DNA of 64,000 nucleotides from Flavobacteriales bacterium (lineage in GTDB: Bacteria; Bacteroidota; Bacteroidia; Flavobacteriales; BACL11), in NCBI GenBank assembly GCA_028122735.1, contig JAOHSR010000003.1, forward strand, positions 10,543 to 74,542, read 5' to 3'. Position numbers and translations under genes: made by a program. Shown here piece after piece: positions 139-15,246 of this stretch (position 1 is the first letter of the stretch; every line of letters starts with the position of its first letter). The notes below the pieces were generated by a model. It was not told the DNA's origin and searched no databases. It saw nothing but the letters and a program-made list of their open reading frames with translations.

Positions 139-2445
139 TTATTTTAGATTAAAAGTGGCCTGAAGATTTTCTATATAAAAAGAGTGTTTGCCAGGCTCAT
201 TTATCCAAAGATTATCATAATTGTAGAATCCAAGCTCATCAAAAGTTACTTTAAAAGAAACTGTTTTTGTCTCCCCAGTTTCCAGCTCCACTTTGTTGTA
301 GCGAACAAGTTTTCTTAGAGGAGGTGAAATCGATGCAAAGTGATCACGAGCATAAAGCTGGACAACCTCTTTTCCAGCTCTTTTTCCTGTGTTTTTAATA
401 TCTACACTAATAGTTATTTCCTTTTCTGAAAGTAGATAATCATTTTTTTCAATATTAATATTGGAGTATTCAAAACTTGTATAGCTTAAGCCAAAACCAA
501 AATTATACTGAGGGTTAAAAAAGTCATTTTTCCAAGTATTTGCGTTTATAAGCTCAGATTGTTTGTGGTCATAGTGCATAATAACGCCGCTATGTCTTGG
601 GTAGGTATAGGGTAGTTTTCCGCTAGGATTTGTTTTTCCAAACAAAATATCTGCAAAAGCCTGCCCCCCCTGATCTCCAGGTAGATAACACTGAACAACG
701 GCATCAGCTAAAGGCTCAATAGCTGAAATAATTTTAGGTCTACCCTCAACAAGAGCAAGAACAATTTTAATTCCCGTTTTAGAGAGCTTCTTAATTATTT
801 CTTGCTGCTCTTTTGCCATGTCAAGAGCATAGATATCCCCAGGTCTTTCAGTTGATGGCAGCTCTCCAAGACAAACAACAGCAACATCATAGTTGCTGGC
901 ATTTTTAACAGCTGTTGCAAGGTCAGAAGAATAAAAATCAGCCTCATCACCATTTACCATTTTCATGGTAGACCCCTCAAAGTGATCACATGATTGAGCG
1001 TTGTTTTTTACTGCCTGGTAAATAGTTGGGTTTTTAGTGTTGTTATATTGCGGGTCAACTCCTTGCCAGGTGTGTGTCCACGCTCCATTTAAACAATTTA
1101 GGCTGTTAGCTGTTGGACCAATAACCATGATTCTTGAGCTCGTACTTAGAGGTAGTAATTGTTCTTTGTTTTTTAGTAGTGTAATTGATTCTGTGGCCGC
1201 CGCATATGCCTTTTTAGCATGAGATTCAGATCCGAAATCGGGATAATCATTTTTATTTGTATATGGGGTGTTAAATAAATTAAGCTTATGTTTTACTCGC
1301 AATATTCTTCTTACAGCATCGTCCAGCCTTTCTGTTTTTACCCTTCTATCATTAATAAGTTCTAGAAACAGTTTGCAGTAGTTTTTATATTCGGGGTTGT
1401 TAGGAACCATACTCATATCAACACCGGCATTTATTGCCGTGGCAATAGCATCTTTTAAAGTTGAGTCTGTTTGAGCTACCTTATAAAGGTTGATAAAATC
1501 TTCCCAATCTGAAACTGAGAACCCTGCAAAACCCCAATCCTCTTTTAAAACATCAGTTAACAGGTGTTTGTTTGCGTGTCCAGGAATTCCATTTACCTCA
1601 CCACTATTTACCATTACAGTAAGGGCCCCACTTTTTATTGCGTTTTCAAAAGGAGGGAGGTGGTACTCTTTCATTGTTCTCTCAGGAATAAGAGCAGGCG
1701 TTCTATCTCTTCCTGTTCTTGGGAAGCCGTAACCAACATAATGTTTCAGACAAGCCGCAACATGATCTTTATCAACATTACCTTCTCCTTGATATCCCTG
1801 CACAATTTTTGTTCCTAAAGTTTTTGCCAAATAAGTGTCTTCGCCAAGTGTCTCAAAAAATCTAGACCAAATAGGAACCCTTCCTAAATCTAAAACCGGA
1901 GAGAAGTTCCAGGGCACCCCAGAAGCCCTTGTTTCATAAGCAGTAACCCTTCCCATTTCTCTTGCCATAGCCGTATCCCAGCTTGCAGCTAGTCCAATTT
2001 CTTGAGGAAAAAGCGTGCTGTTTTGAATGTATGTTGCCCCATGAATTGCATCTACGCCATAAATAATAGGAATTTTTAGACCCGAATTTGTGGCCTTTTC
2101 CTGAATGGTTTTTATTATTAGATTCCAATTTTCAAGAGTGAAAGTGTGATTTGAAACATTTAAAATAGAGCCAACTTTATAAATATCGATGGCCTCTTCA
2201 AGTTTTTTAAGATCAATTTGATGAGGCTCAATTAAAACATTTTCAGCATCTTTTTGTAGTATGGCATCTAAGGTTATTTGACATGTTTGACCAACCTTTT
2301 CTTCAACGGACATTTTTTTAATTAGAGCATCAATTTCTTTTTCAGCTACAGGATCAAGCTCAAATGAGCTTGTGCTTTTATTGTTATCACAAGAAAAGAG
2401 AAAAAGAACAAAAAGTAATAAAGTAAATACTGAATTTGTTTTCAT
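139..2445 (-). CDS. GH3 beta-glucosidase (BglX-like), lipoprotein
   Basis: Lipobox LFSC; GH3 motifs GVDAIHG, FSPVLD, KHYVG, nucleophile SDW; C-terminal PSGKLP and FN3-like EVVQLY. Confidence 0.93.
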   Translation of the reverse strand: MKTNSVFTLLLFVLFLFSCDNNKSTSSFELDPVAEKEIDALIKKMSVEEKVGQTCQITLDAILQKDAENVLIEPHQIDLKKLEEAIDIYKVGSILNVSNHTFTLENWNLIIKTIQEKATNSGLKIPIIYGVDAIHGATYIQNSTLFPQEIGLAASWDTAMAREMGRVTAYETRASGVPWNFSPVLDLGRVPIWSRFFETLGEDTYLAKTLGTKIVQGYQGEGNVDKDHVAACLKHYVGYGFPRTGRDRTPALIPERTMKEYHLPPFENAIKSGALTVMVNSGEVNGIPGHANKHLLTDVLKEDWGFAGFSVSDWEDFINLYKVAQTDSTLKDAIATAINAGVDMSMVPNNPEYKNYCKLFLELINDRRVKTERLDDAVRRILRVKHKLNLFNTPYTNKNDYPDFGSESHAKKAYAAATESITLLKNKEQLLPLSTSSRIMVIGPTANSLNCLNGAWTHTWQGVDPQYNNTKNPTIYQAVKNNAQSCDHFEGSTMKMVNGDEADFYSSDLATAVKNASNYDVAVVCLGELPSTERPGDIYALDMAKEQQEIIKKLSKTGIKIVLALVEGRPKIISAIEPLADAVVQCYLPGDQGGQAFADILFGKTNPSGKLPYTYPRHSGVIMHYDHKQSELINANTWKNDFFNPQYNFGFGLSYTSFEYSNINIEKNDYLLSEKEITISVDIKNTGKRAGKEVVQLYARDHFASISPPLRKLVRYNKVELETGETKTVSFKVTFDELGFYNYDNLWINEPGKHSFYIENLQATFNLK

Positions 2446-2449
2446 ATAA

Positions 2450-3919
2450 TTATTTTATAAGTAAAAGTTTTTCTGAATAGAATTTGTTTTCTGAATAGTA
2501 CGAGCAATTATAAATACCAGCAGGAAGGTGTAGAATGTTTATTGTTTTGCCTTCTAGTTTGTCTTTTTTAAAAACAACTTTTCCAAGTAGTGTTGTTATT
2601 TTGAGGTTTTTAGTATTATTTGCAGAAAGACTAATAAGCCCACTGCTCGGGTTTGGATACAAGCTATTCCCCAAGCTAGACAGCTCATTTACATCAGAGA
2701 TGATAATAGAATTACATGTTGGGGTGCATTGCCCCCACTTTGGACAGATAACCTTGTTTTCGTCAATAACAATCGTTCTGTTTGTATATTGAGTGTTTCC
2801 GTTTGTACAAGCCCATGCTGGGTCTAATGACTCGGCAATAGACCAATTGTCAGCACTAAATTTTAGTTCGTAATAACCCTCTAGCATTGTAATTTGTTTT
2901 TCCCAAATACCATCCCCATCTAAATCTTCCATTGGCCAACAACTTCCACACCAGGTGTTAAAAGTTCCATTAACCTCAGGGGTAGTAAAAGATTGAGAGA
3001 CATCATTCATGTCAACTCTAAAGGTTACAAGATACTCACAGCTTCCATTAGCAATTGTTGCAGAGGAGTTATAGTTTGTTGCTTGAGGATCTTTACACCC
3101 AAGAATTCCAGTATTTTCATATACCCTTACATAATCTACTTCAATTTGAGAGGGAAAAGATGTTAGTGAGTTTGGACCGTTATCAGTAACTGCAAGATTT
3201 AAGATTAAGTACCAATCATTAGAATTAAAAGGCCAAGAATGTTGGTTTGGAATTGTTGGATAGCTTGAGGGAGAGAGCTGATAAACCTTAACGCCATCAA
3301 TAAACCAAGCAATATAGTTTTCGTCCCACTCTACTGCATAATTGTGAAAGCTAGAAGCAAAACTTCCTGTTTGTATTTGGTGTTGAAATGACTGATAAAA
3401 AGATTGTCCCGGACATGAGCCCACGTGGGCAGCACCTGTAGTTTCTACGGTAGGCCAGTCATTTGCCCACTGCTCCATAATATCAATCTCGCCATCACAT
3501 GGCCAAGAACCACCAGAGGGCAGCATCCAAAATGCAGGCCAAAACCCTTCGCCATTTACGGTTTTCATTCTTGCCTCAATCTTACCATACCTTACTTCAA
3601 ACTTATTTTCAGTCTTGATTTTTGAAGAGCTATAGTACATGGTATTTCCCCAACTATCAACTATACCACCCGGCTCTTCTTTAACAATAATTTTTAGTGT
3701 TCCATTGCTCACTTCAGCATTACCAGCTTGATAAAATTGCAGCTCTCCATTTCCCCAGCCCCACAGACCGTATTGACTTCCTGTTCCAAGATCATGTGTC
3801 CATTTTGTTTGATCTAAAGTAGTTCCAGAAAAATCATCTTCCCAAACTAAAGACCAGCCTTGTGAGTAAGAGGTGTTACAAAAGCAAATTAAAAACGTAG
3901 CGATTAATAAATTTTTCAT
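2450..3919 (-). CDS. GH16 endo-beta-1,3-glucanase (laminarinase type) with Cys-rich repeat, CBM-like module and T9SS type A CTD
   Basis: Signal peptide; GWGNGELQ, WPAFWML, catalytic EIDIME; GCKDPQATNY repeat; VTFRVDM...WCGSC module; YPNPS...LLGK CTD. Confidence 0.92.
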   Translation of the reverse strand: MKNLLIATFLICFCNTSYSQGWSLVWEDDFSGTTLDQTKWTHDLGTGSQYGLWGWGNGELQFYQAGNAEVSNGTLKIIVKEEPGGIVDSWGNTMYYSSSKIKTENKFEVRYGKIEARMKTVNGEGFWPAFWMLPSGGSWPCDGEIDIMEQWANDWPTVETTGAAHVGSCPGQSFYQSFQHQIQTGSFASSFHNYAVEWDENYIAWFIDGVKVYQLSPSSYPTIPNQHSWPFNSNDWYLILNLAVTDNGPNSLTSFPSQIEVDYVRVYENTGILGCKDPQATNYNSSATIANGSCEYLVTFRVDMNDVSQSFTTPEVNGTFNTWCGSCWPMEDLDGDGIWEKQITMLEGYYELKFSADNWSIAESLDPAWACTNGNTQYTNRTIVIDENKVICPKWGQCTPTCNSIIISDVNELSSLGNSLYPNPSSGLISLSANNTKNLKITTLLGKVVFKKDKLEGKTINILHLPAGIYNCSYYSENKFYSEKLLLIK

Positions 3920-3923
3920 CTAT

Positions 3924-6809
3924 CTAGTTTTGAATGGTGATTTTTTTACTAACAACTTCATTTCCAATATATACTGAAATATAATAAAGACCATTTTCTT
4001 TAATATTTAAAGCGTGTTTGTTTTTGTTCGTTTTGTTCACTTTTGAATAAACAAGCTTTCCTAAAACACTGTAAACATCAATTCTAGAGGTTTCTTGTGG
4101 GGTATTTATGTTTATTAGTCCTGATGAAGGGTTTGGATAAACAAAAACACTATTTAAATTGTTTTCTGAGACCCCTGTCTGTCCTTGACACTCCACACAG
4201 CTATTCCAACAAACAGCGTCTAGCTCAATCTCCGAATCAATAACTAAATATCGGTTAACAAAACCCCATCCATTAGGAGCGCCTGGGTCAAATGCAACAG
4301 TAACACAGCTTGCTGTAGAGTCAAGATCTTCTTGAATATTCCAGCCATCAGCAGAGAACTTATACTCTACCGTGTCTCCAGCAGAAAGAAGCGCTGTGAA
4401 CTCCCAAACATTATCTCCATTGTCATCTGTCATTGCCCAACAACTTCCGCACCAGCTATTAAAAGTTCCGTTTACCTCTGGAGTTGTAAAAGGAGGACCA
4501 ACATACTCAGACATGTCTAACCTGAACGTCACATTATATGAAGAAGGTCCAGAGCTTGACAAACAATCCTCACACGATTGCCAGCAAACAGGTTCTAAAA
4601 TTGTATCTTGATTTACATGTAGTATTCTATTTGTAAAACCATTACTTGACACTGTACAGCTGTCTCCCGAAAAAAGATTCTCTTCAATTGTCCAGTTGTC
4701 TACAGAGTATTTATACTCATAAGAGCCGGAATCTATTAAGATAGTTATTTCCCATATGGAATCGTTGTTTAGGTCCTCAAGTTGCGTACAGTTTCCACAC
4801 CAACCATTAAACATTCCGTTTAACTCGGGAGTAATATATGTAATATTTGTAACTCCTCTTAGATCTAGCTGAAAAGTAACGCTATAGCCATAGACACAAG
4901 TACTGTCATCGCAAGTTGCCAATGGGTCATAGTTATTTGCTAGAGTATCAGTGCATCCATAACTAGTTAAACAGCTTCCGTCATCACAATTTGCAATAGG
5001 GTCAAAATTACACGCCATAGTGTCTGTACATCCGAAATTGTTTAAACAACTTCCGTCATCACAAGTCGCTAAAGAATCATAATTACAAGCAAGAATGTCC
5101 GTACAACCATAAATTGTTAAACAGCTTCCGTCGTCACAAGTTGCAAAAGGATCAAAATTACAGGCTAGAGAATCGGTACAGCCGTAGATCGTTAAGCAGC
5201 TTCCATCATCACAAGTTGCTAAAGCGTCATAATTACAAGCAAGAACATCCATACACCCATAATAACAATATACACAGGAGCTGTCATCTATAGTTGCGAG
5301 GGGATTATAGTTTAGGGCAGTAGAGTCTGTACACCCATAGGTTACTTGAGGGAAGACACAAGAGTCTGGGCAATTAGCCAAAGAGTCATAGTTAAGAGCT
5401 GCCGGATTCATACAGCCATAAATTGTTAAACAGTTTCCATCATCGCAGGTAGCTAGCGGATCAAAATTACAGGCTAAAGAATCTGTACAGCCATAAAGCG
5501 TTAAACAGCTTCCGTCATCACACGTAGCTAGCGGATCAAAATTACAGGCTAGTGAATCGGTACATCCATAAGATGTCAGGCAACTTCCATCATCAAAAGT
5601 TGCTAAAGTATCAAAATTACAAGCAAGAGAGTCTGTACACCCAAGAGTACAGTCGTTACAAGAGCCGTAAGTGTCGCTACTTATATATTCAGGTACAATA
5701 GTGATTAATCTGTTAGCATATGTAGAATAGTCTGTAATAGGGGCGCAAGTACCGCCGGCTTGCATATCATCTACCAAATCTTCCTGATAAGTCCAGCTGT
5801 CTAAAGCGTATTTGTATTCAAAGTCACCAATGGGTAAATCAAGAGTTATGGAATATATTCCATCCCCATCAGGGTCAGACAATATTACACAGCCACCACA
5901 CCAGTTAAAATTAGGGCTTTCCAAATTAACTTCCGAAAAAGAGGTTGTATCGCAATTCATATTAACATTAAATGTTGTGCTATATAGGCAGCTTCCATCA
6001 TCAATTGTGGCAAGAGAATCATAATTTGCAGCAAGTGTATCCGTACATCCATTTACACCAGTAATAACACAGTTATTCCATGAAGAGGAAAATGTTGTGT
6101 CACTATTTACAATAGCAGCTCGATTAACAAAGCCCCAACCATTAGGAGCCCCCGGGTCATAGTTAATTGTGATGCAAGATAGAGAAGAATCAAGGTCTTC
6201 TTGAATAGTCCAGTTATCAGCAGAATATTTCCATTCTAAAGAATCTCCAGGACCAAAAGATGTTGAGAATTGCCAAACACTGTCTCCATCAGCATCAGTC
6301 ATTGGCCAGCAATTACCACACCAACTGTTAAAACCTCCATTCACTTCTGGTGTTGTGTAAGGATCTGTAACTCCTCTCATATCAACCTCAAAAGTTACAC
6401 TATAAGAAGAGGGCCCTGAACTACAGCTACTGCATGAGCCCCAACAAACAACAGGAAGAGTTGTATCTCCACTAATAGTTAAAACTCTGTTGGTGTATTG
6501 AGTGTTTCCGTTTGTACAGCTATCACCAGAATATAAAGATTCTTGTATAGTCCAGTTGTCAGCAGAGTATTTAAACTCGTAAGTTCCATTAGCTAAATCT
6601 ATAGTAACATCCCAAATATTATCACCATCAAGGTCTGACATTGCAGCACAGTTTCCACACCAACCATTAAAAGTTCCGTTTACTTCAGGGGTGGTAAATG
6701 TTGTTGGGTCAACATCACTCATGTCAACTTGAAAGGTTACATTGTTTTGAGCTATTGTGCTAAAGCAAAAAAGAAACAACGTCAATAGATGTGCTAAAAT
6801 ATTTTTCAT
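3924..6809 (-). CDS. T9SS-secreted multi-module protein (5 CBM-like WCGxC modules, Cys-rich GCTD repeat array); no catalytic domain recognised
   Basis: Signal peptide; five (V/T)TFx(V/L)(D/N)(M/L)...WCGxC...DxDGD...E(Y/F/W)K modules; tandem GCTDxxACNxDxxAxxDDGSC repeats; VYPNPS...VLGK...KKITIQ CTD. Confidence 0.85.
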   Translation of the reverse strand: MKNILAHLLTLFLFCFSTIAQNNVTFQVDMSDVDPTTFTTPEVNGTFNGWCGNCAAMSDLDGDNIWDVTIDLANGTYEFKYSADNWTIQESLYSGDSCTNGNTQYTNRVLTISGDTTLPVVCWGSCSSCSSGPSSYSVTFEVDMRGVTDPYTTPEVNGGFNSWCGNCWPMTDADGDSVWQFSTSFGPGDSLEWKYSADNWTIQEDLDSSLSCITINYDPGAPNGWGFVNRAAIVNSDTTFSSSWNNCVITGVNGCTDTLAANYDSLATIDDGSCLYSTTFNVNMNCDTTSFSEVNLESPNFNWCGGCVILSDPDGDGIYSITLDLPIGDFEYKYALDSWTYQEDLVDDMQAGGTCAPITDYSTYANRLITIVPEYISSDTYGSCNDCTLGCTDSLACNFDTLATFDDGSCLTSYGCTDSLACNFDPLATCDDGSCLTLYGCTDSLACNFDPLATCDDGNCLTIYGCMNPAALNYDSLANCPDSCVFPQVTYGCTDSTALNYNPLATIDDSSCVYCYYGCMDVLACNYDALATCDDGSCLTIYGCTDSLACNFDPFATCDDGSCLTIYGCTDILACNYDSLATCDDGSCLNNFGCTDTMACNFDPIANCDDGSCLTSYGCTDTLANNYDPLATCDDSTCVYGYSVTFQLDLRGVTNITYITPELNGMFNGWCGNCTQLEDLNNDSIWEITILIDSGSYEYKYSVDNWTIEENLFSGDSCTVSSNGFTNRILHVNQDTILEPVCWQSCEDCLSSSGPSSYNVTFRLDMSEYVGPPFTTPEVNGTFNSWCGSCWAMTDDNGDNVWEFTALLSAGDTVEYKFSADGWNIQEDLDSTASCVTVAFDPGAPNGWGFVNRYLVIDSEIELDAVCWNSCVECQGQTGVSENNLNSVFVYPNPSSGLININTPQETSRIDVYSVLGKLVYSKVNKTNKNKHALNIKENGLYYISVYIGNEVVSKKITIQN
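4890..5642 (-). repeat. Ten tandem coding repeats of about 75 bp (25-aa GCTDxLACN(F/Y)DxLATCDDGSCLTxY)
   Basis: Read directly in the translation: 10 units of 23-27 aa totalling 251 aa. Confidence 0.92.
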
Positions 6810-6831
6810 GTTTAGGGTGTTTTAGTTTTTG

Positions 6832-6881
6832 TAAAGATACAAAATTTACTTAGTGTATTTTAGCCCTTTATTACAAACACT
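6832..6881 (-). promoter_or_regulatory. Putative promoter of the 961-aa/GH16/GH3 operon with two operator half-sites
   Basis: TATCTTTA (variant of the Bacteroidota -7 TAnnTTTG) at 6839-6832; AGTGTA at 6852 and AACACT at 6876-6881; TTACTTAGTG shared with 12994-13003. Confidence 0.45.
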
Positions 6882-6886
6882 TACAT

Positions 6887-6922
6887 AAAAAAAGGCCTTA
6901 AAGTTAATTAAGGCCTTTTTTT
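6887..6922. terminator. Intrinsic terminator after the 2002-aa gene
   Basis: Perfect inverted repeat AAAAAAAGGCCTTAA-agttaa-TTAAGGCCTTTTTTT with U-tracts on both strands. Confidence 0.9.
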
Positions 6923-6938
6923 AATTATTTAAAAGATA

Positions 6939-9900
6939 CTATTGAAGAACTATCTTTTTGTTTACAACACCATTATTTGTTGTAATTTCTAAGAAGTAAA
7001 CCCCTTTAGTGTATTTAGACATGTTTATCGATTTAGTGTACTCTCCAACAAACTGCTCAAGGCCTTCGGAGTAAACCAACTCTCCAACCATATTCAATAC
7101 TCTTACTTCTAAGTTTTGAATATCTTCAGACACAAAAGAAACATTAAAGATGCCGTTAGAAGGGTTTGGATAAACCTCTAGATCATTAATTTGACTTCCC
7201 CCATCTAATCTAATTGGAACAACACCAGGTTGTGTCCAGGTAATTGGACTTGTCCAATCTGATCGGTAAGATGTTACGTTTACATCACAGAACGTTCTTC
7301 CTTGAGCTCTATATTCAGTTCCAGATTGAAGTCCAAACTTATTTACAGAATATGTAGGGTAGAACACTCCAAATCCACCAGCAGTCTGCCAGTTAGAACC
7401 TACAGTATTTACTCTTAGGGCTACTCTAGCAAAAGTATAAGGGCCGGTTTCTGTCCATGTGAATCTTGCCTTAGAATCATTAGAGCTAAACGTTTCAACC
7501 ATTAGCGTATCCATCTCTGGACAAGCATCTTGAGTTGTGAATTGATCTGAATATGAATATCCTGATTCACCACCTCCACAATAAAAGGCTTTCATTTTGA
7601 ATTCGTAAGTTGTTGAAGCCATAAGACCTCTTAGTACCTTAGAAGTGTTAGGCAGTCCAACATTGCATAGTCCAGACCCAATACCAGCAGCTTTAGTTGT
7701 CCACGTAAGAGTTCCTACCTCACGATATCTTACAAAGTATTTTTCAACTCTACAGCTTCCACTGTTAGCATCATTCCAGTGAATAGTTGCCATCTCAGCA
7801 TAAACATCACTTGAGTTTAATCCAATTGGATATGGTGCCGAACAGTTGTATCCATATAAGCATGAACCATCGTCTACCATTGCAGAATCGTTGTAGTTAA
7901 ATGCTAAAGAATCTGTACAACCTTGAACACATTCAGAGCAAGAGCTATAAGTATTATCAAATATAGGGCTTGAATTAACCACTTGTTCAACAACTGAAAC
8001 ATTATCTATTGAGCCTATTGCAGAGTCTAATGGTTGAATTCTAAATCTCTTATCATTTGCTGCCGTGATGTATTCCGAATAGACACCCGCAGCGCTTCTT
8101 TCAATACCAGTTACGCCTCCTATTTTTGCCCTATACGATCCTTTTGAAATATTCACAACTTCGTAAGTAACTAAAAAAGTTGTATTAGCTATACCAATAA
8201 CACTTGCTTGGCTTATAGTATTATCTGTTGTGCCAAGCGAAATTGCTACGCCATTTTGTATGGTCCAGTTAGCACCATTAGACCATCCAGTATTCCCATT
8301 AGAAAAACTTCCATTAGTAATAAGTTCACCTGAATTTGCAATAAGTCCATTAACATCAACAAGTCTGTTGGCATATGTTGCGTAATCAGTTATTGGAGCA
8401 CAAGAAGCGCCGCCAACCATATCGTCAATTAAGTCTTCTTGGCCAGCCCATCCATCAACAGCATACTTGTATTCAAAGTTTCCAGCAGGCAGATCAACAG
8501 TTACAGAGTGAACCCCATCACCATCAGGATCAGTCATTGGAACACAGCCACCACACCAGCCAAATACAGGACTTTCTAAGTGAACATACCCAAATGAACC
8601 AGCAGGCTCACAATTCATATCTACATTAAATGTAGTTGAGAATAAACACGAACCGTCATCATCTGTTGCAAGAGCATCATAGTTTATTGCGCCAGCATCA
8701 GTACATCCATTTACTTGGTCACAAATATCACAAGATCCATACGTATCATCCAATACAGTTCCAGCTGAAACATCCACTAATCTATTAGCATAAGAGAAGT
8801 AGTCAGTTACAGGAGCACAAGAAGCTCCGTTCTGCATATCATCAACTAGATCTTCTTGACCAGCCCATGAATCTACAGCATACTTGTATTCAAAATTACC
8901 AAGTGGTAGGTCAACAGTTACAGAGTGAACCCCATCACCATCAGGATCAGTCATTGGCACACAACCACCACACCAGCCAAATACTGGGCTTTCAAGATGA
9001 ACATATCCAAATGAGCCAGCAGGCTCACAATTCATATCAACATTGAATGTGGTAGCGTAAACACAAGACCCATCATCTAAGTCTGCTAAAGGATCAAAAT
9101 TAGAAGCAGCCGGATCAGTACATCCAGGAGGGCATACACTACATCTTCCATAAACATCAGAAGTAGTCGAGTTGGCAGCCGCTTGTCTGTATGCATATGA
9201 TAAATTATCCGTATATGGAGCACACGTGTTAGTTCCATTTAACATTTCGTTAAATAGGCCAGCGAATTCAGAATCCGCCCAAACATCAACAACGTACATG
9301 TATACAAAGTTATCAGTAACACTGTGAGTTCCTTCCCACACTCCATCACCGTCAGCATCAGTTAATAGGTATGTATTACCTGACCAGTTGTCTAAGAATC
9401 CTGTTGCAGCTAATGTTGTAGGAGTTAAGCCTGAACAAGTCATGTCTACTGTAAAGGTAACATCATACTCACAAGAACCATCATCTGTAGTCATTGTTGA
9501 GTCATAATTATTTGCTAGAGGATCTGTACAGCCAGCAATACATGCAATACACGATCCGTAAGTGTCAGAAGTATTGATTCCAGGAGTTGCTGTTACTAAT
9601 CTATTTGCATATGAGAAGTAATCGGTTACTGGAGCACAAGTTTCTCCACTTACCATATCATCAACCAAGTCTTCTCTTGAAGAATTGTTGTCAATTGAGT
9701 AGAAGTAAACAAAGTCTCCACCAGGAATATCAACAGTAACTGAATAAATACCATCCATTTCTGGATCTGACATTTGAGTACAGCCTGTAAAGCATCCAAA
9801 ATAAGCGCTTTCTAAATGTACTGTAGAGTAAGTTGTTGGGTCTTCACAATTCATATCTACATTAAATGTAGCTGTAAATAGACAAGAACCATCATCTGTT

Positions 9901-12900
9901 GTTGCTGTTGCGTCATAATTATTTGCAAGCGGATCAGTACATCCCAATATACAAGCATCACAAGAGCCGTAAGTATCAGTAATTGAAACTCCAGCAGCCA
10001 CAGCTATTAGTCTATTTGCATAAGAGAAGTAATCTGTAACCGGGGCACAAGAAGCGCCGGCAACCATATCGTCAATCAGGTTTTCTTGACCAGCCCATGA
10101 ATCAACAGCATACTTATATTCAAAATTACCAAGATCTAAATCAACAGTAACAGACCAAACGCCATCTCCATCAGCATCAGTCATTGGAACGCATCCACCA
10201 CACCATCCAAACTCTGGGCTTTCAAGGTGTACATATCCAAATGAACCAGCAGGCTCACAGTTCATATCAACAGTAAATGTTGTAGCATATAAACAAGAGC
10301 CGTCATCAACTACAGCTGTTGAGTCGTAGTTTGAAGCTAAAGGATCAGTACAACCAGGAGGAAGACTATAAAATGAAGTTAAATCAATAGCCATATCAGA
10401 TGTATAGCTAGTACCGGCTATCCCCTCAATTCTTAAGTCAATTTCACCAGTAAATGCACCAAGATCTATAATTGATTGGTTCCATACATTTCCTAAGTCA
10501 CCTGAGGCAGTCCAAACATTTGTCCATGTTGCTCCGTTATCTGATGAAACATCAACGTTTAAAGTCCCCATAGTAGCGCCATACATGTGGTAAGCAAAAG
10601 AGAACCCTGGATTAGCAAAAGCATCCATATCTACACAAGGAACAGTTATTCTTGCAGAAGCGCCCCATGTTGAGGATGGAGATGTTTCTGTATACAAATA
10701 AGTAGAGCTATCAAAGGCAGCAGTTGGCCCTGTATTAGAAGAGCCTGTAGGCCCAACTTTACTAGTCCAATTAAAATCATCATCAGTATCTTGAAACCAC
10801 ATTTCTAAACCTGTTTCAAAACTTGAAGTCGAGTCAGTGTCTATACAAGGATATGTACAACTTCCATCATCAGCTTGTGCCAATGGGTTGTAATCAATAG
10901 AGAGTATGTCTGTACAACCTGTTATTACAGGAAGACATAATGTGTCGCTATAAGGAGCTCCTCCTGAAAGAATGGTCACACCAGCAGAATTTGCTAGAGT
11001 CCAACTTACCTCACCTAACCAAGTTCCACCACTACAAGTTACTGGGTAGCAGAGATCTTGTAAACAAACTGTTACACTGGAAGAAGAACCAGAAGATAGA
11101 GAATAAGAATTTCCCGCAATTGTAAAGTTAGTTCCACTCCAACCATCACCATAAGAGTCCATCATTGTAAGAGTGTATGAATTAGAGCAAGAGCCATCAT
11201 CTATAGTGGCTAGAGCATCGTAATTACACGCAGTAGGATCCATGCATCCAACGATTACAGGAAGGCATAAAGAGCCAGTGTAAGGTGCACCTCCAGAAAG
11301 GATAACAACTCCATTAGCGTTTGCTAAAGTCCAGCTTACTTCGTATCCATAAGAACCTCCCCCACAAGTTACCGTATAGCAAGAGATGTCATCAGCTAAG
11401 CAAAGTATATCAGTACCTAAAGCACCAGAAGAAAGAGTTGATGAAGAGATTAGTGTTCCATTAGCATCAGTAACATCAAAAGTATTTCCATTCCAACTAT
11501 CTCCATATGAATCTATCATAGTTAAAGTATATGAAGGGTCACCGCATGAACCGTCGTCAACAGTTGCTGAAGGGTCGTATCCACATAACATTGGGTCTGT
11601 ACATCCAAAAATAACAGGAACACAGTGATTACCTGTATATGTGCCAGCTCCAGAAACAATAACTGTGCCAACAGCATCCACTAAACTCCAACTAATTTCA
11701 CTAGCCCATGTACCCCCTCCAACTACAATGTCGTAACATGCATCAGGAAGGCAAAGTACTTCTGTTCCACTTGATCCGCTTGGTAACGTAGATGAAGAAA
11801 TTACGGTTCCATTAACATCAACAACATCAAAAGTATTTCCACTCCAACCATCTCCATAAGAATCATTCATTGTTAATGTGTATGCAGCGTCACCACACGA
11901 GCCGTCATCAACAGTTGCTAGTGGGTCATATCCGCATAACATTGGGTCTGTACACCCATAAACCTCAGGAACACAGTGATTACCCGTATATGTGCCGCCT
12001 CCAGAGACAATAACAGTTCCAAGCCCATCCACTAAACTCCAACTAATTTCACTAGCCCATGTACCCCCTCCAACTACAATGTCGTAACATGCATCAGGAA
12101 GGCAAAGTACTTCTGTTCCACTTGATCCGCTTGGTAACGTAGATGAAGAAATTACAGTTCCATTAACATCAACAACATCAAAAGTATTTCCACTCCAACC
12201 ATCTCCATAAGAATCGTTCATTGTTAGCGTGTATATTCCATCAGCACTACATGTTCCGTCGTCGTATATTGCAAGAGGATCGTAATTGCAGGCTAAAGGA
12301 TTCACACATCCACAACCATAATCATGAGTACCAACATAGGTCCACGTGTCTTTAGCGTAAACAAGCCATTCTGAGCTTAAAGAATCTGTACCAGCTGATG
12401 CTGTCCAGTCGTCATTACCACTGTGTACTGAACATTTTCTGACTAAAGTGTGGTCCTTTGTAGCACTTGTTACTCCAGCAACATCCCATCCAGCACCAGG
12501 ATCACCATCCCAATTCCCATACCAATCTAAGACGGTATAACCTCCTGTTACGGGGTCCGTAGGGCTTGTTGGTTCTGAACCATATACTAGTGCAAAACCA
12601 TCATCACCGTTACTTAAATAAGTAAATGTTTCATCTGCTTCTGCTAAAATTGAAGCGTCTGAAGAAGGATGAGCTACAACATATACATCATAAGGCAAGA
12701 TTACCGCTCCAGCATCAAAATCGTTCCAATATTCATAAACACCAACAGTTGTTGGGTCATTAGATACATTAGGATAAGCATACATAGAAAGGTCAACAGT
12801 ATCTGCTGTTGGGTTATAGATCTCAAAATACTTGTGATTTGAGCTTCCCTCAGCCCATTCTGAGAAAAATATATTTGTCTGAGCGTTCGCAAAACTGAAC

Positions 12901-12947
12901 ACAAAAGACAATAAGTTTATAACTAAAATATTAGTAAAATTTTTCAT
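6939..12947 (-). CDS. Giant T9SS-secreted surface protein: lamin-tail domain, 4 DSYGD(G/S)W modules, MAM domain, 5 CBM-like modules, GCTD repeats, FN3-like domains, type A CTD
   Basis: LTD-like IFFSEWAEGSSNHKYFEIYN; MAM-like TGPTAA...FAYHMYGATMGTL...DMAID; FN3-like YFVRYRE...TYEFKM; VYPNPSNG...GVYF...KKIVLQ CTD. Confidence 0.85.
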   Translation of the reverse strand: MKNFTNILVINLLSFVFSFANAQTNIFFSEWAEGSSNHKYFEIYNPTADTVDLSMYAYPNVSNDPTTVGVYEYWNDFDAGAVILPYDVYVVAHPSSDASILAEADETFTYLSNGDDGFALVYGSEPTSPTDPVTGGYTVLDWYGNWDGDPGAGWDVAGVTSATKDHTLVRKCSVHSGNDDWTASAGTDSLSSEWLVYAKDTWTYVGTHDYGCGCVNPLACNYDPLAIYDDGTCSADGIYTLTMNDSYGDGWSGNTFDVVDVNGTVISSSTLPSGSSGTEVLCLPDACYDIVVGGGTWASEISWSLVDGLGTVIVSGGGTYTGNHCVPEVYGCTDPMLCGYDPLATVDDGSCGDAAYTLTMNDSYGDGWSGNTFDVVDVNGTVISSSTLPSGSSGTEVLCLPDACYDIVVGGGTWASEISWSLVDAVGTVIVSGAGTYTGNHCVPVIFGCTDPMLCGYDPSATVDDGSCGDPSYTLTMIDSYGDSWNGNTFDVTDANGTLISSSTLSSGALGTDILCLADDISCYTVTCGGGSYGYEVSWTLANANGVVILSGGAPYTGSLCLPVIVGCMDPTACNYDALATIDDGSCSNSYTLTMMDSYGDGWSGTNFTIAGNSYSLSSGSSSSVTVCLQDLCYPVTCSGGTWLGEVSWTLANSAGVTILSGGAPYSDTLCLPVITGCTDILSIDYNPLAQADDGSCTYPCIDTDSTSSFETGLEMWFQDTDDDFNWTSKVGPTGSSNTGPTAAFDSSTYLYTETSPSSTWGASARITVPCVDMDAFANPGFSFAYHMYGATMGTLNVDVSSDNGATWTNVWTASGDLGNVWNQSIIDLGAFTGEIDLRIEGIAGTSYTSDMAIDLTSFYSLPPGCTDPLASNYDSTAVVDDGSCLYATTFTVDMNCEPAGSFGYVHLESPEFGWCGGCVPMTDADGDGVWSVTVDLDLGNFEYKYAVDSWAGQENLIDDMVAGASCAPVTDYFSYANRLIAVAAGVSITDTYGSCDACILGCTDPLANNYDATATTDDGSCLFTATFNVDMNCEDPTTYSTVHLESAYFGCFTGCTQMSDPEMDGIYSVTVDIPGGDFVYFYSIDNNSSREDLVDDMVSGETCAPVTDYFSYANRLVTATPGINTSDTYGSCIACIAGCTDPLANNYDSTMTTDDGSCEYDVTFTVDMTCSGLTPTTLAATGFLDNWSGNTYLLTDADGDGVWEGTHSVTDNFVYMYVVDVWADSEFAGLFNEMLNGTNTCAPYTDNLSYAYRQAAANSTTSDVYGRCSVCPPGCTDPAASNFDPLADLDDGSCVYATTFNVDMNCEPAGSFGYVHLESPVFGWCGGCVPMTDPDGDGVHSVTVDLPLGNFEYKYAVDSWAGQEDLVDDMQNGASCAPVTDYFSYANRLVDVSAGTVLDDTYGSCDICDQVNGCTDAGAINYDALATDDDGSCLFSTTFNVDMNCEPAGSFGYVHLESPVFGWCGGCVPMTDPDGDGVHSVTVDLPAGNFEYKYAVDGWAGQEDLIDDMVGGASCAPITDYATYANRLVDVNGLIANSGELITNGSFSNGNTGWSNGANWTIQNGVAISLGTTDNTISQASVIGIANTTFLVTYEVVNISKGSYRAKIGGVTGIERSAAGVYSEYITAANDKRFRIQPLDSAIGSIDNVSVVEQVVNSSPIFDNTYSSCSECVQGCTDSLAFNYNDSAMVDDGSCLYGYNCSAPYPIGLNSSDVYAEMATIHWNDANSGSCRVEKYFVRYREVGTLTWTTKAAGIGSGLCNVGLPNTSKVLRGLMASTTYEFKMKAFYCGGGESGYSYSDQFTTQDACPEMDTLMVETFSSNDSKARFTWTETGPYTFARVALRVNTVGSNWQTAGGFGVFYPTYSVNKFGLQSGTEYRAQGRTFCDVNVTSYRSDWTSPITWTQPGVVPIRLDGGSQINDLEVYPNPSNGIFNVSFVSEDIQNLEVRVLNMVGELVYSEGLEQFVGEYTKSINMSKYTKGVYFLEITTNNGVVNKKIVLQ
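8360..9060 (-). repeat. Close intragenic copies of the WCGGC module (period 417 bp; further copy near 10010-10290)
   Basis: FNVDMNCEPAGSFGYVHLESPVFGWCGGCVPMTDPDGDGVHSVTVDLP is identical in two copies; ccatcaggatcagtcattgg at 8521 and 8938. Confidence 0.88.
11539..12233 (-). repeat. Recent 351-bp tandem duplication (117-aa DSYGDGW module)
   Basis: 11677-11864 and 12028-12215 differ at only one base by eye; constant offset of 351. Confidence 0.9.
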
Positions 12948-12999
12948 AATAATTTGTTTTTTGTTTTTGAAGCACTAAATGTAGTAAAAAATCTTACTT

Positions 13000-13016
13000 A
13001 GTGAACAATATACACT
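13000..13016. promoter_or_regulatory. Palindromic operator candidate upstream of the 2002-aa gene
   Basis: AGTGAACAATATACACT, one mismatch to AGTGT-N7-ACACT; 16 nt upstream of the -7-like TACATTTA (12983-12976). Confidence 0.6.
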
Positions 13017-13166
13017 TGCCAATTTTACTAGAGTAGTTGATTTGTAAATAGATTTTTATTAAATTTTGTAAACAAAAACTCATCAAATTCTATTTGAAAA
13101 ACTAAAAGAGATAAAAGCTTAAATGGTTTTGTATAATTATAAATAAAAAATTGTTATATTTTAACT

Positions 13167-13193
13167 AAAAAAGGGCTGCCAAGAGCCCTTTTT
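13167..13193 (-). terminator. Intrinsic terminator of gap
   Basis: Minus strand AAAAAGGGCT-CTTGGC-AGCCCTTTTTT. Confidence 0.85.
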
Positions 13194-13243
13194 GTGCCAT
13201 CTCTAGCACATAAACTAAAACACAATTACTACTTGGCTAGTAA
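13167..13243 (-). ncRNA. Candidate structured RNA in the gap 3' UTR (three hairpins)
   Basis: UUACUA-GCCAAG-UAGUAA; UGUGCUA-GAGA-UGGCACA (GNRA loop, G.U pair); terminator hairpin with loop CUUGGC. Confidence 0.35.
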
Positions 13244-13249
13244 GCTTTT

Positions 13250-14290
13250 TTAACCATTTAAAAAATTGACTGTTTTTTGTTTTTCATTTAATTTAAGAGT
13301 GTCCATATGAACAATTAGATCTAATATTTTGTTTGAATACCCCCATTCATTATCATACCAGCTTACAACTTTGAAAAATTTAGAATTTAATTCAATACCT
13401 GCTTTTGAGTCAAAAATAGATGTTCTACTATCAGACATAAAATCTGTTGAAACAAGATCTTCGTCTGTATATCCTAATATTCCATTGTATCTTTCAGATT
13501 TTGAGGCCTCATGCATAACGCGACAAATTTCTGCATACGATGTTTCAGATTTAAGATTTACCGTTAGATCAACCACTGAAACATTTGCAGTAGGAACTCT
13601 ATAGGCCATTCCGGTCAATTTACCCTCCATTGATGGAAGAACTTTCCCAACAGCTTTGGCAGCACCAGTTGAGGCAGGGATAATATTTTGATAAGCCCCT
13701 CTACCTGCGCGCCAATCTTTTAAGGATGGACTATCTACTGTTTTTTGTGTTGCTGTTGCCGCGTGAACCGTTGACATAATACCGCTTTCAACTCCAAATT
13801 TTCTGTCTAGTATTTCAACAATAGGAGCTAAACAATTTGTCGTGCAAGAAGCGTTTGATACGATATTCATTTCTTTAGTATATTTTTCGTGATTAACACC
13901 CATAACAAACATTGGGGTTTCATCTTTTGAAGGAGCAGAAAGGATAACCTTTTTAGCACCGGCATCTAAGTGTTTTTGTGCCAAATCAGAGGTTAAAAAT
14001 AAACCAGTAGCTTCGATTACATATTCTGCGTTTACTTCACTCCATTTTAATTTTGAAGGGGCTTTTTCACTTGATATTCTGATTTTATGTCCCCCAACAT
14101 ATAAATGTTCTTTGTCGTGTGAAATCTCTAAATCTAATCTGCCATGGCTCGAATCGTATTTTAGCATGTACGCCAAATAATCTACAGGATATAAATCATT
14201 AATAGCAACAACATTCATATCAGCTCTTTTTAAGATGTTTCTGAAAGCAAGCCTTCCAATTCTACCAAAACCGTTTATAGCGATGTTCAT
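13250..14290 (-). CDS. gap: Type I glyceraldehyde-3-phosphate dehydrogenase
   Basis: [26 protein letters not shown]. Confidence 0.98.
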
Positions 14291-14310
14291 AATTTAAAAA
14301 TTTAATACCA

Positions 14311-14334
14311 CAAAGTTAGTGTAATTTAAACACT
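14311..14334 (-). promoter_or_regulatory. gap promoter -7 element with abutting operator
   Basis: TAACTTTG at 14318-14311 shares one base with the palindrome AGTGTAATTTAAACACT (14318-14334). Confidence 0.7.
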
Positions 14335-14364
14335 TACAGCTTATTTCTTATTTTTTTTACTTAA

Positions 14365-14388
14365 GGTGTACAAAATACACTATGTTTG
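14365..14388 (+). promoter_or_regulatory. Sugar-kinase promoter -7 element with abutting operator
   Basis: GGTGTACAAAATACACT (14365-14381) shares its last base with TATGTTTG (14381-14388). Confidence 0.7.
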
Positions 14389-14406: not shown

Positions 14407-15246
14407 ATGATATTAATTGCAGATAGTGGATCGACAAAGTGTAGCTGGGCAATATGTGTTAATGGCCAGATAATTGATAGGTGTAGTACAATTGGATTCA
14501 ACCCTTATTTTATTTCCTCTAAACAGGTTGCTATCAATCTTCAAAAATCTGATCTTGACGATATAAGAGATCAAATTTCAAAGGTATATTTTTATGGGGC
14601 AGGATGTTCTTCTTCTAAAATGAATAAGATAATTGAAACTCCATTTTGTGATTTTTTTAAAAATGCTGAGATAAACATACATCATGACTTAGACGCTGCT
14701 TGCTATTCAATGTATGATGGAGAGCCAGCAATTACTGGTATATTAGGAACGGGATCTAACTCATGTCTCTTTGATGGCACAACAATTTACGAGAGTGCCC
14801 CTTCTTTAGGCTTTATGCTTGGAGATGAGGCTTCCGGAAACTATTTTGGAAAGAAATTACTGAACCTCTATTTTAATAATATACTATCAAAGGATCTTAA
14901 GAAAAAGTATGAGAATAATTATGAAACCGATATAGCAAATATTAATTCTAACGTATATAATAATTCAAGAGCAAATGTCTATTTAGCTAAATTTTTTCCA
15001 TTTGTTTCAGAAAATAAGAATCACGAGCAAATGCAAGAGTTGATAAAAACATCTCTAGATGAATTTTTTAGACTTCACATATGTTGTTTTCCAAATCATA
15101 AAGAAGTGAAAATTAATTTTATCGGTTCAGTTGCGTTTTTTCTTCAAGAAGAGATTAAAGCGGTTGCTTTATCTTACAATTGCAAAATAGGAGAGATTGT
15201 TAAAAACCCTATAGATAAGTTAATAGAATATCACTTCAAAAAATAA
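14407..15246 (+). CDS. BadF/BadG-type sugar kinase (N-acetylglucosamine kinase family; possible glucokinase)
   Basis: ILIADSGSTK, FYGAGC, ILGTGSNS, LGDEASG; ATG at 14407 preferred because the TTG at 14386 lies inside the promoter. Confidence 0.88.
   Translation: MILIADSGSTKCSWAICVNGQIIDRCSTIGFNPYFISSKQVAINLQKSDLDDIRDQISKVYFYGAGCSSSKMNKIIETPFCDFFKNAEINIHHDLDAACYSMYDGEPAITGILGTGSNSCLFDGTTIYESAPSLGFMLGDEASGNYFGKKLLNLYFNNILSKDLKKKYENNYETDIANINSNVYNNSRANVYLAKFFPFVSENKNHEQMQELIKTSLDEFFRLHICCFPNHKEVKINFIGSVAFFLQEEIKAVALSYNCKIGEIVKNPIDKLIEYHFKK

Follow-up and report, generated by a model that had tools for sequence, protein, structure and literature searches.

Most DNA motifs of the NrtR family of regulators have a 21-bp palindromic symmetry around a GT-N7-AC core, and the groups listed for Bacteroidetes in Table 1 of the same paper are Xyl, Ara and NAD only (Rodionov 2008, PMC2330246). 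The classical members, described from Shewanella oneidensis and Synechocystis, respond to adenosine diphosphate ribose (ADP-ribose) and govern the synthesis of nicotinamide adenine dinucleotide (NAD). Bacteroides thetaiotaomicron AraR (BtAraR; BT0354; PDB 5bs6, 5dd4 and 5deq) is described as a repressor released by its sugar, L-arabinose abolishing its binding to DNA. Here I analyse a 64,000-nucleotide (nt) stretch of a Flavobacteriales bacterium (GenBank assembly GCA_028122735.1, contig JAOHSR010000003.1), referred to as the window. It carries palindromes of the GT-N7-AC type upstream of gap, encoding glyceraldehyde-3-phosphate dehydrogenase (GAPDH), of a divergent sugar kinase gene, and of the gene for a large secreted carbohydrate-binding protein, and an NrtR-family protein is encoded on the same contig. 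These palindromes are very probably conserved operators of a dimeric NrtR-family repressor, closest to Bacteroides AraR, that links glucan capture with glycolysis. The comparisons below show the sites, with their conservation and placement at promoters, and the regulator's gene, family, fold, recognition helix, co-location and co-occurrence with the sites; that the protein binds, that it does so as a dimer, that it represses and what its effector is are my inferences.

The regulator and its sites resemble the BtAraR system in the two-domain build and fold of the protein, in the GTGT-N7-ACAC core, in an identical DNA-reading helix (DKRNFRK) and in a degenerate Nudix box. Both systems also have tandem sites (2 bp apart on contig C2 of the genome studied here, 3 bp at araM in the BtAraR system), and in both the gene is embedded in a sugar-utilisation cluster under its control, a control that is predicted here. 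In contrast, the two proteins share only ∼30% identity, the pocket is altered, the wing reads HK and not KR, and a 15-residue helical insertion follows the equivalent of R86; the predicted regulon is glycolysis and glucan capture, not arabinose. With classical NrtR, as described, the protein shares the family, the 21-bp GT-N7-AC palindrome and an apparent repressor role, but it scores 96.8 bits against the NAD-type equivalog, where the cut-off is 400 bits, and its predicted regulon holds no NAD genes.

CggR of Bacillus subtilis and HexR of Proteobacteria are repressors at gap or lower-glycolysis promoters, released by a sugar-derived signal. A similar working is proposed here for the NrtR-like protein, although CggR and HexR belong to unrelated families (SorC/DeoR and RpiR, respectively) and neither governs extracellular glucan capture. 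The regulator BguR, as its preprint describes it (bioRxiv 10.64898/2026.01.10.698779), likewise governs GH16/GH3/GH158 loci in marine flavobacteria, but is a membrane-spanning, SusCD-associated one-component activator of LuxR type; the terms NrtR, Nudix and glycolysis do not occur in the main text of that preprint. The only GerE-type match in the assembly studied here is a 227-amino-acid (aa) frame, too short for a BguR-like membrane-spanning regulator.

Operators and promoters in the window

The palindrome AGTGT-N7-ACACT is perfect at 14318-14334 and has one mismatch each at 14365-14381 and 13000-13016, positions and counts that an earlier, sequence-only reading of the window had given and that direct reading and a pattern scan reproduce. 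All are copies of an extended 21-bp operator, TTAGTGTA-N5-TACACTAA. They are listed here with the promoter boxes read from the sequence; scores come from a weight matrix trained on 14 sites from relatives only and then run on the window's own genome.

14316..14336 (core 14318-14334): operator O-gap, TTAGTGTAATTTAAACACTTA, 22.9 bits, covering the first bases of the gap -7 box
14363..14383 (core 14365-14381): operator O-kinase, AAGGTGTACAAAATACACTAT, 19.5 bits, covering the first bases of the kinase -7 box
12998..13018 (core 13000-13016): operator upstream of the 2002-aa binding-protein gene, TTAGTGAACAATATACACTTG, 13.1 bits
14311..14318, minus strand: gap -7 box, CAAAGTTA on the plus strand and TAACTTTG on the minus strand
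14381..14388, plus strand: kinase -7 box, TATGTTTG

The -7 consensus of Bacteroidota promoters is TAnnTTTG, and at both gap and the kinase the first T of this box is the last base of the palindrome. The gap promoter reads CAAAGTTAGTGT on the plus strand, so that its -7 box TAACTTTG shares its first bases with the operator. The kinase promoter, ACACTATGTTTG, is the mirror image of this arrangement, and the mirror-identical geometry claimed in the sequence-only reading for the two divergent promoters is therefore correct. The third site lies outside this divergon: it follows gap and precedes the ATG (12947) of the 2002-aa gene by 51 nt, with a near-consensus -7 box, TACATTTA, ∼14 nt downstream of it. 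Eleven promoters were read in all, namely the window's two divergent promoters and nine in other families, and in each (11/11) the operator overlaps the TAnnTTTG box or ends 0-14 nt before it.

Matches to the palindrome at one mismatch or fewer number six in the window, against a shuffle mean of 1.66. The whole assembly (1.03 Mb, 54 contigs, 30% GC, estimated 59% complete) holds 17 such matches, five of which are intergenic, the intergenic share of the genome being ∼5.7% by a crude open-reading-frame call. The five are the window's three sites and a tandem pair, 2 bp apart, on contig C2, which precedes a paralogous secreted X25/CBM-repeat binding-protein gene at the contig end (G000:C2:25660-26505; genomes, contigs and loci carry the handles G, C and L, and G000 is the window's own genome). 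The N-terminus of this paralogue has 88% DNA identity to that of a 961-aa gene in the window. With the matrix trained on relatives, the top three sites of the genome are those of gap (22.9 bits), the kinase (19.5) and C2 site b (15.7); the top eight also hold C2 site a (13.4) and the 2002-aa site (13.1), so that five of eight are intergenic. Because two of the five have orthologues among the training sites, only three count as independent. At two mismatches no enrichment is seen in the genome (24 of 314 matches intergenic). Small parts of the window (share ≤0.17) occur in 20 marine metatranscriptome runs, as contigs without transcript-start information.

The genes concerned, and a tentative hairpin, are as follows.

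13250..14290, minus strand: gap, type I glyceraldehyde-3-phosphate dehydrogenase (Pfam; NCBIfam TIGR01534, 427.6 bits)
14407..15246, plus strand: BadF/BcrAD-type sugar kinase, 279 aa (weak Pfam match)
6939..12947, minus strand: 2002-aa secreted protein with MAM, CBM48, X25 and a type IX secretion system (T9SS) sorting tail (Pfam); putative regulon member
3924..6809, minus strand: 961-aa secreted protein with X25, CBM48, a CBM20-like module and a T9SS tail (Pfam)
2450..3919, minus strand: GH16 glucanase with a T9SS tail (Pfam)
139..2445, minus strand: GH3 beta-glucosidase (Pfam)
13167..13189, minus strand: hairpin AGGGCT-CTTGGC-AGCCCT and T run after gap (by eye; tentative)

The kinase start is taken as ATG 14407 rather than TTG 14386. 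Its relatives in the PDB are 1zxo, 8oqw and 8ow9, the last an N-acetylmuramic acid (MurNAc) kinase, plus N-acetylglucosamine (GlcNAc) kinases; with MurNAc and GlcNAc kinases among the nearest solved relatives, the glucose phosphorylation assigned to it in the sequence-only reading is not established. The hairpin, tentatively, separates gap from the promoter of the 2002-aa gene. A terminator scan did not list it, and the sigma-70 promoter/terminator scan was dropped as uninformative for this phylum, having missed this hairpin.

The genome also has another gap gene, at G000:C52:4080-5102, with 40% identity to the regulated paralogue, and a search at E≤1e-60 did not find the regulated type in 14 of the 24 genomes of the window's family. 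The proteins encoded at 3924-12947 and on C2 carry Pfam starch- or glycogen-binding modules (CBM48, X25, CBM20, AMPK1_CBM) and stand beside GH16, GH3 and GH158 beta-1,3-glucanases.

An NrtR-family gene at the end of the glucanase cluster

The sequence-only reading stated that the window holds no regulator gene, which is true, and placed the regulator elsewhere. An NrtR-family gene does exist, but it is encoded nearby, at the end of the same cluster: it lies on the window's own contig (G000:C23:1426-2106, minus strand, 226 aa), 8.4-9.1 kb to the left of window base 1. A search of the genome with PF21906 (NrtR_WHD) gives a single match, at G000:C23:1441-1614 within a 228-aa open frame, and the protein scores 83.1 bits (cut-off 27) for this domain over residues 165-222 and 38.4 bits for PF19368 (AraR_C). 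The N-terminal domain is Nudix-like. PF00293 (NUDIX) misses this copy but matches the orthologues in G035, G039 and G028; the search of the own genome with PF00293 returned only a 158-aa frame on C26, a false negative for the regulator. The best solved relative is BtAraR (5bs6, E 5.9e-28, residues 6-223). An AlphaFold model (predicted local distance difference test, pLDDT, 89.6; predicted template modelling score, pTM, 0.83) has BtAraR entries and then Shewanella NrtR as its top Foldseek matches, over the full length, and its N-terminal half also resembles Nudix hydrolases. The catalytic signature of Nudix enzymes, GX5EX7REUXEEXGU, is impaired in non-enzyme regulators (Chang 2015, PMC4666351). 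In the regulator, as read from its sequence, this box is degenerate: G42-x5-E48-x7 is followed by KRILKSLT, with KRILKS replacing REUxEE.

The regulator gene, nrtR, is the final gene of a co-oriented GH16/GH3/GH158 cluster. The order of the run is 2002-aa, 961-aa, GH16, GH3, then genes for proteins of 659, 571, 331, 414 and 449 aa, GH158 and nrtR; in the feature list the 961-aa gene is the first of the long co-oriented run. The GH158 protein (373 aa) matches PDB entries 9oro (3.4e-65) and 6pal (4e-45). In ten genomes of the window's family nrtR begins a few bases after GH158, and in G022 it follows GH3; standing directly behind these genes, it has no promoter of its own in those genomes. Genomes of this family with a match carry exactly one NrtR-family gene each. 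In this assembly the gap between GH158 and nrtR measures 171 nt (G000:C23:2107-2277), against 5-25 nt in relatives, and looks coding on the minus strand, which may reflect a frameshift or a truncated GH158 C-terminus.

Between GH3 and GH158 stands a trio of signal-peptide proteins (659, 571 and 331 aa; G000:C23:5993-10677), and the cluster contains no SusC/SusD gene. Homologues of the trio (32/26/25% identity) occur in the same order in G032 (L102:4634-8871), where they adjoin the nrtR orthologue with an operator between. The 659-aa protein and its three G032 homologues have no Pfam match. The trio may constitute a SusCD-independent uptake module for glucan oligosaccharides.

The duplex in the BtAraR co-crystal carries GTGT-N7-ACAC, and K179, R180 (intercalating), N181 and K184 of the helix, together with K204 and R205 of the wing, are said to 'define' GTGT (Chang 2015, PMC4666351). 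The helix DKRNFRK is identical to that of BtAraR in the regulator and in all 19 members of its branch, and the four contacting helix residues are thus the same. The sites likewise fit the NrtR-type description, with a 21-bp palindrome and GT-N7-AC core found in regulon promoters and near the regulator gene; the sequence-only reading had recognised this core as an NrtR signature, in agreement with the motifs in Rodionov 2008 (PMC2330246). HexR- or CRP-type spacing was rejected, the arms being GTG-N9-CAC, and BT4338 of Bacteroides was rejected as an NrtR-like protein, since Table 2 of Ravcheev 2013 lists it in the Crp family.

The branch was defined from 30 NrtR_WHD proteins taken from 41 genomes. 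Nineteen of these are 47-90% identical to the query, and these orthologues form one side of a split supported at 100/99 in a maximum-likelihood tree. Throughout the branch a 15-residue insertion, R-T/V-x3-KDQxWLxxY/F-R, is present and is modelled as a helix; no paralogue has it in the same form, G030a having a different insertion there. The branch also reads PGDL at the position of AraR GGF, and does not possess the C-terminal tail of the paralogues, whose neighbours are prs/NAMPT, GH127, galK and an SSF symporter. Arabinose is bound in AraR by R34, R86 and H131 together with F36, G47, G48, F49, V92 and F129. Within this pocket, H131 and F129 are kept in the regulator, and the changes are R34 to K (K28), F36 to I (I30), G48 to D and F49 to L (G42-D43-L44). 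AraR R86 aligns with a K in the pairwise alignment and with an invariant R81 in the multiple alignment, the insertion following directly. None of the 19 orthologues has ara genes in its neighbourhood, and the branch is separate in the tree from the GH127-linked paralogue. With these changed pocket residues, this lack of ara linkage and this separate branch, the protein does not fit the orthologous group of the L-arabinose repressor AraR.

The same NrtR-like protein might instead bind these sites but sense ADP-ribose or an NAD-derived nucleotide, coupling GAPDH and carbon intake to NAD turnover. The founding members of the family respond to ADP-ribose (Rodionov 2008, PMC2330246), GAPDH uses NAD, and the arginine and histidine that contact the sugar moiety and are common to AraR and Shewanella NrtR are kept (R81, H143). 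I consider this improbable, as the 96.8 bits scored against the ADP-ribose-responsive NrtR equivalog (NCBIfam NF050029) fall far below the cut-off of 400, no NAD genes appear in the regulon or beside any of the 19 orthologues, a separate paralogue adjoins prs/NAMPT in G036, and among solved structures the sugar-binding AraR is closer than Shewanella NrtR, and closest of all, in sequence as well as in fold. This G036 paralogue (L064:1036-1758) has a variant operator, TTTGTGTA-N5-TACACATT, on both sides of the gene, consistent with a classical NAD-type NrtR being present in this order too.

Conservation and co-occurrence across families

The link between the proposed NrtR-like repressor and these operators can be examined in five other flavobacterial families. 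The nrtR orthologue is immediately preceded by an operator scoring 18-25 bits in G035, G039, G028, G032 and G026. It adjoins pfkA-gap each time, divergently oriented in G035, G039, G028 and G026 and convergent at the end of the pfkA-gap operon in G032; in G015 the orthologue and the kinase are immediate neighbours. Later genes of the operon in G035 and G039 encode a BadF-type kinase, an MGS-like protein, a HAD hydrolase and GH65 and GH13 enzymes, further operators stand before SusC/SusD (22.5 and 24.6 bits), and the pfkA promoters repeat the junction seen in the window, CAAACATAGTGT and CAAACTTAGTGT. A ROK glucokinase occupies the kinase slot of the operon in G032. As a side observation, the regulator branch thus flanks alpha-glucan loci (GH13, GH65, SusCD) in G035 and G039.

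Operator and orthologue co-occur across genomes. The scan of gap took in 30 loci from 26 genomes and left out four more matches, which had no locus. Among the genomes with both an orthologue and a scanned gap locus, 14/15 have a site of at least 19 bits before gap or ∼1.0-1.1 kb upstream of it, the latter position being before pfkA where checked; among those in which no orthologue was found, 1/11 has a site (G010).

At the kinase, 27 relatives were compared with the window's own genome (28 loci, one G010 duplicate having been dropped). GTG-N9-CAC is present within 220 nt upstream of the kinase at 11 of the 28 loci, the remaining 17 being without it. The site-bearing loci are the window's own and those of G007, G001, G009, G012, G010, G015, G022, G024 and G021, all from the same family, and of G028 from another. 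The O-kinase site is kept in G007, G001 and G012. Most site-bearing loci also retain the junction CAAAnTTAGTGT on the side facing gap, and sites with the same -7-box junction stand upstream of gap in G007, G001, G009, G012, G010, G015, G024 and G021. The position equivalent to the 13000 site, past gap and before a large CBM-protein gene, carries sites in G009 (15.7 bits), G015 (18.7 and 20.6), G024 (15.2 and 25.4) and G021 (16.4), and paralogous binding-protein genes have sites upstream in G003 (18.6), G004 (17.9) and G008 (12.2). The exact pattern has 47 matches, against 7 for the control, in a set of five larger genomes where one to three NrtR-family genes were found; this count is not assignable to one paralogue.

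The sequence-only reading had proposed that the motif would be conserved in orthologous intergenic regions and would turn up before other sugar genes in a matrix scan, and that a gene for a Nudix protein with a winged helix-turn-helix would carry its own upstream site. The first holds for the 11 of 28 gap/kinase loci and for the pfkA-gap operons of other families, and the second for pfkA-gap and SusC/SusD promoters in those families. The gene was found, and five distant orthologues carry the site, but in the own genome the site before the run is decayed. None of the three refuting conditions set in the sequence-only reading overturns the proposal.

Operators of 19-23.5 bits also stand before genes outside annotated sugar catabolism, at L076:3273-3293 (G021:C12), L077:1309-1377 (G021:C21) and L079:1132-1152 (G022:C15). 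One of these lies between an OmpA/TPR protein and a 337-aa glutamine-synthetase-like gene, and the others precede the gene of a 757-aa beta-helix protein in two genera; in the 59%-complete own assembly this 757-aa protein has only a weak partial match.

The motif could also be the site of another transcription factor (of Crp, GntR, LacI or ROK type), its association with nrtR being coincidental. GT...AC palindromes are also used by GntR-family factors, and in an assembly 59% complete further factors may be unseen. This is nevertheless very unlikely: the recognition helix matches, residue for residue, that of the protein co-crystallised with GTGT-N7-ACAC, the nrtR gene is immediately preceded by sites in five families, and the co-occurrence is 14/15 versus 1/11.

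Several observations weigh against regulation by the NrtR-like protein as proposed, or narrow it. The clearest concerns the operon that starts with the 961-aa gene.

6850..6870: decayed operator before 961-aa/GH16/GH3, left half TTAGTGTA kept, right half lost

The half-sites noted there in the sequence-only reading both exist (AGTGT at 6852-6856 and ACACT at 6877-6881, 20 nt apart); the left one is what remains of a full operator, but the right one is not conserved. Sister species have full operators at the aligned position (TTAGTGTATATTGTACATTAA in G007, 19.2 bits; TTAGTGTAAACTTTACATTAA in G008, 17.2 bits), where the own genome reads TTAGTGTATTTTAGCCCTTTA and scores 2.4 bits, and no other site above 9 bits lies inside the run from the 961-aa gene through GH16 and GH3 to nrtR. 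With the site decayed and none to replace it, operator control of the hydrolase run and of nrtR, as judged from sequence, is doubtful in this strain; in the genus it is likely. The claim that one regulator co-controls glucan capture, the kinase and GAPDH is accordingly supported by the sites and the regulator, but not here by the 961-aa/GH16/GH3 operon. Further, the wing contacts K204 and R205 of AraR are H and K in the regulator, the wing of the branch reading H-K-P-A versus K-R-G-A. The kinase-side site is lost in G009, and in G014, which possesses the orthologue, the 220 nt upstream of the kinase hold no site. G010 (88% complete) has a site and no orthologue was found in it, and G038 has an orthologue, beside edd-eda, and no site at gap. 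The genomes are kin, so that the co-occurrence contrast overstates their independence. TAGTGT-N7-ACACTA at one mismatch or fewer shows no genome-wide excess over a reversed control in five small relatives (7/8, 3/4, 5/3, 8/5 and 7/5); with raw counts no higher than the control, only promoter placement is informative there. Finally, pfkA was not found in the own 59%-complete assembly, and because of this incompleteness the regulon list is partial.

Proposed mechanism and significance

Taking the palindromes as operators of the NrtR-like repressor, each half of the effector-free dimer would read one GTGT through the helix DKRNFRK, with the winged helix acting as DNA reader and the inactive Nudix-like domain as sensor. 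The 21-bp footprint, on the -7 box or up to 14 nt upstream of it, would block RNA polymerase at four promoters, those of gap, the divergent sugar kinase, the 2002-aa glucan-binding gene and the C2 paralogue with its two tandem sites; in sister species the repressor would also cover the 961-aa/GH16/GH3 operon. Repression by promoter occlusion is suggested by the operator position, by analogy with AraR. An effector entering the Nudix-like pocket would cause the repressor to leave the DNA, and glucan capture and lower glycolysis would then rise together.

It is hardly credible that the protein binds but activates, or that the palindromes are promoter architecture or chance: BguR, the one laminarin-locus regulator so far described in marine Bacteroidota, is an activator, and the window-level excess of matches is by itself modest (six are reached in 2 of 100 shuffles), but at 11/11 promoters read the sites lie on or against the -7 box and take up the -7/-33 spacer, a position incompatible with class I or II activation, BtAraR is described as a repressor released by its sugar, and the fixed-N7 palindrome is conserved across families while its flanks drift.

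For a repressor of this kind, the content of the regulons bears on the effector. The regulons share pfkA, gap and a hexokinase-type gene, combined with machinery for alpha-glucan or for beta-1,3-glucan. Glucose is the product that they have in common, and free D-glucose is therefore favoured as the effector, a tentative choice that falls a little short of an even chance. A phosphorylated glycolytic intermediate is possible though unlikely, and a glucan-derived disaccharide is decidedly doubtful. A wider proposal, which I offer as speculation held at somewhat less than even confidence, is that one small repressor may set pfkA-gap-kinase expression and storage-glucan harvest in one step, at alpha-glucan SusCD loci in large genomes and with a SusCD-less, T9SS-secreted laminarin apparatus (including the conserved trio described above) in streamlined plankton, the 15-residue insertion re-tooling an arabinose-size pocket for a new ligand.

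The NrtR-like branch would represent a previously undescribed functional type within a known family of regulators. Literature on NrtR with laminarin, flavobacteria, glucose, glycolysis or Bacteroidetes yielded no description of it, figures and supplements excepted, and neither the Zobellia AusR paper nor the B. thetaiotaomicron regulon paper describes the branch; the text of Chang 2015 (PMC4666351), apart from its figures and supplements, names only AraR and XylR. In databases the protein is named 'NUDIX hydrolase' or '8-oxo-dGTP diphosphatase', and 4359 proteins match it at E≤1e-20; if the proposal is true, these names would be corrected.

Storage glucans are a major carbon flux of algal blooms and, to my knowledge, little is settled about what turns on the consumption of laminarin and other such glucans by marine flavobacteria. 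The regulator branch occurs in streamlined uncultured lineages and in at least six other flavobacterial families. If the reading is right, operator and repressor form a compact pair that is testable in culturable relatives, and a cytoplasmic Nudix-type repressor would be a second control layer beside the activator BguR, coupling glucan capture to pfkA and gap. It would also bring hexose and central carbon metabolism within the reach of the NrtR family, next to NAD and pentoses.

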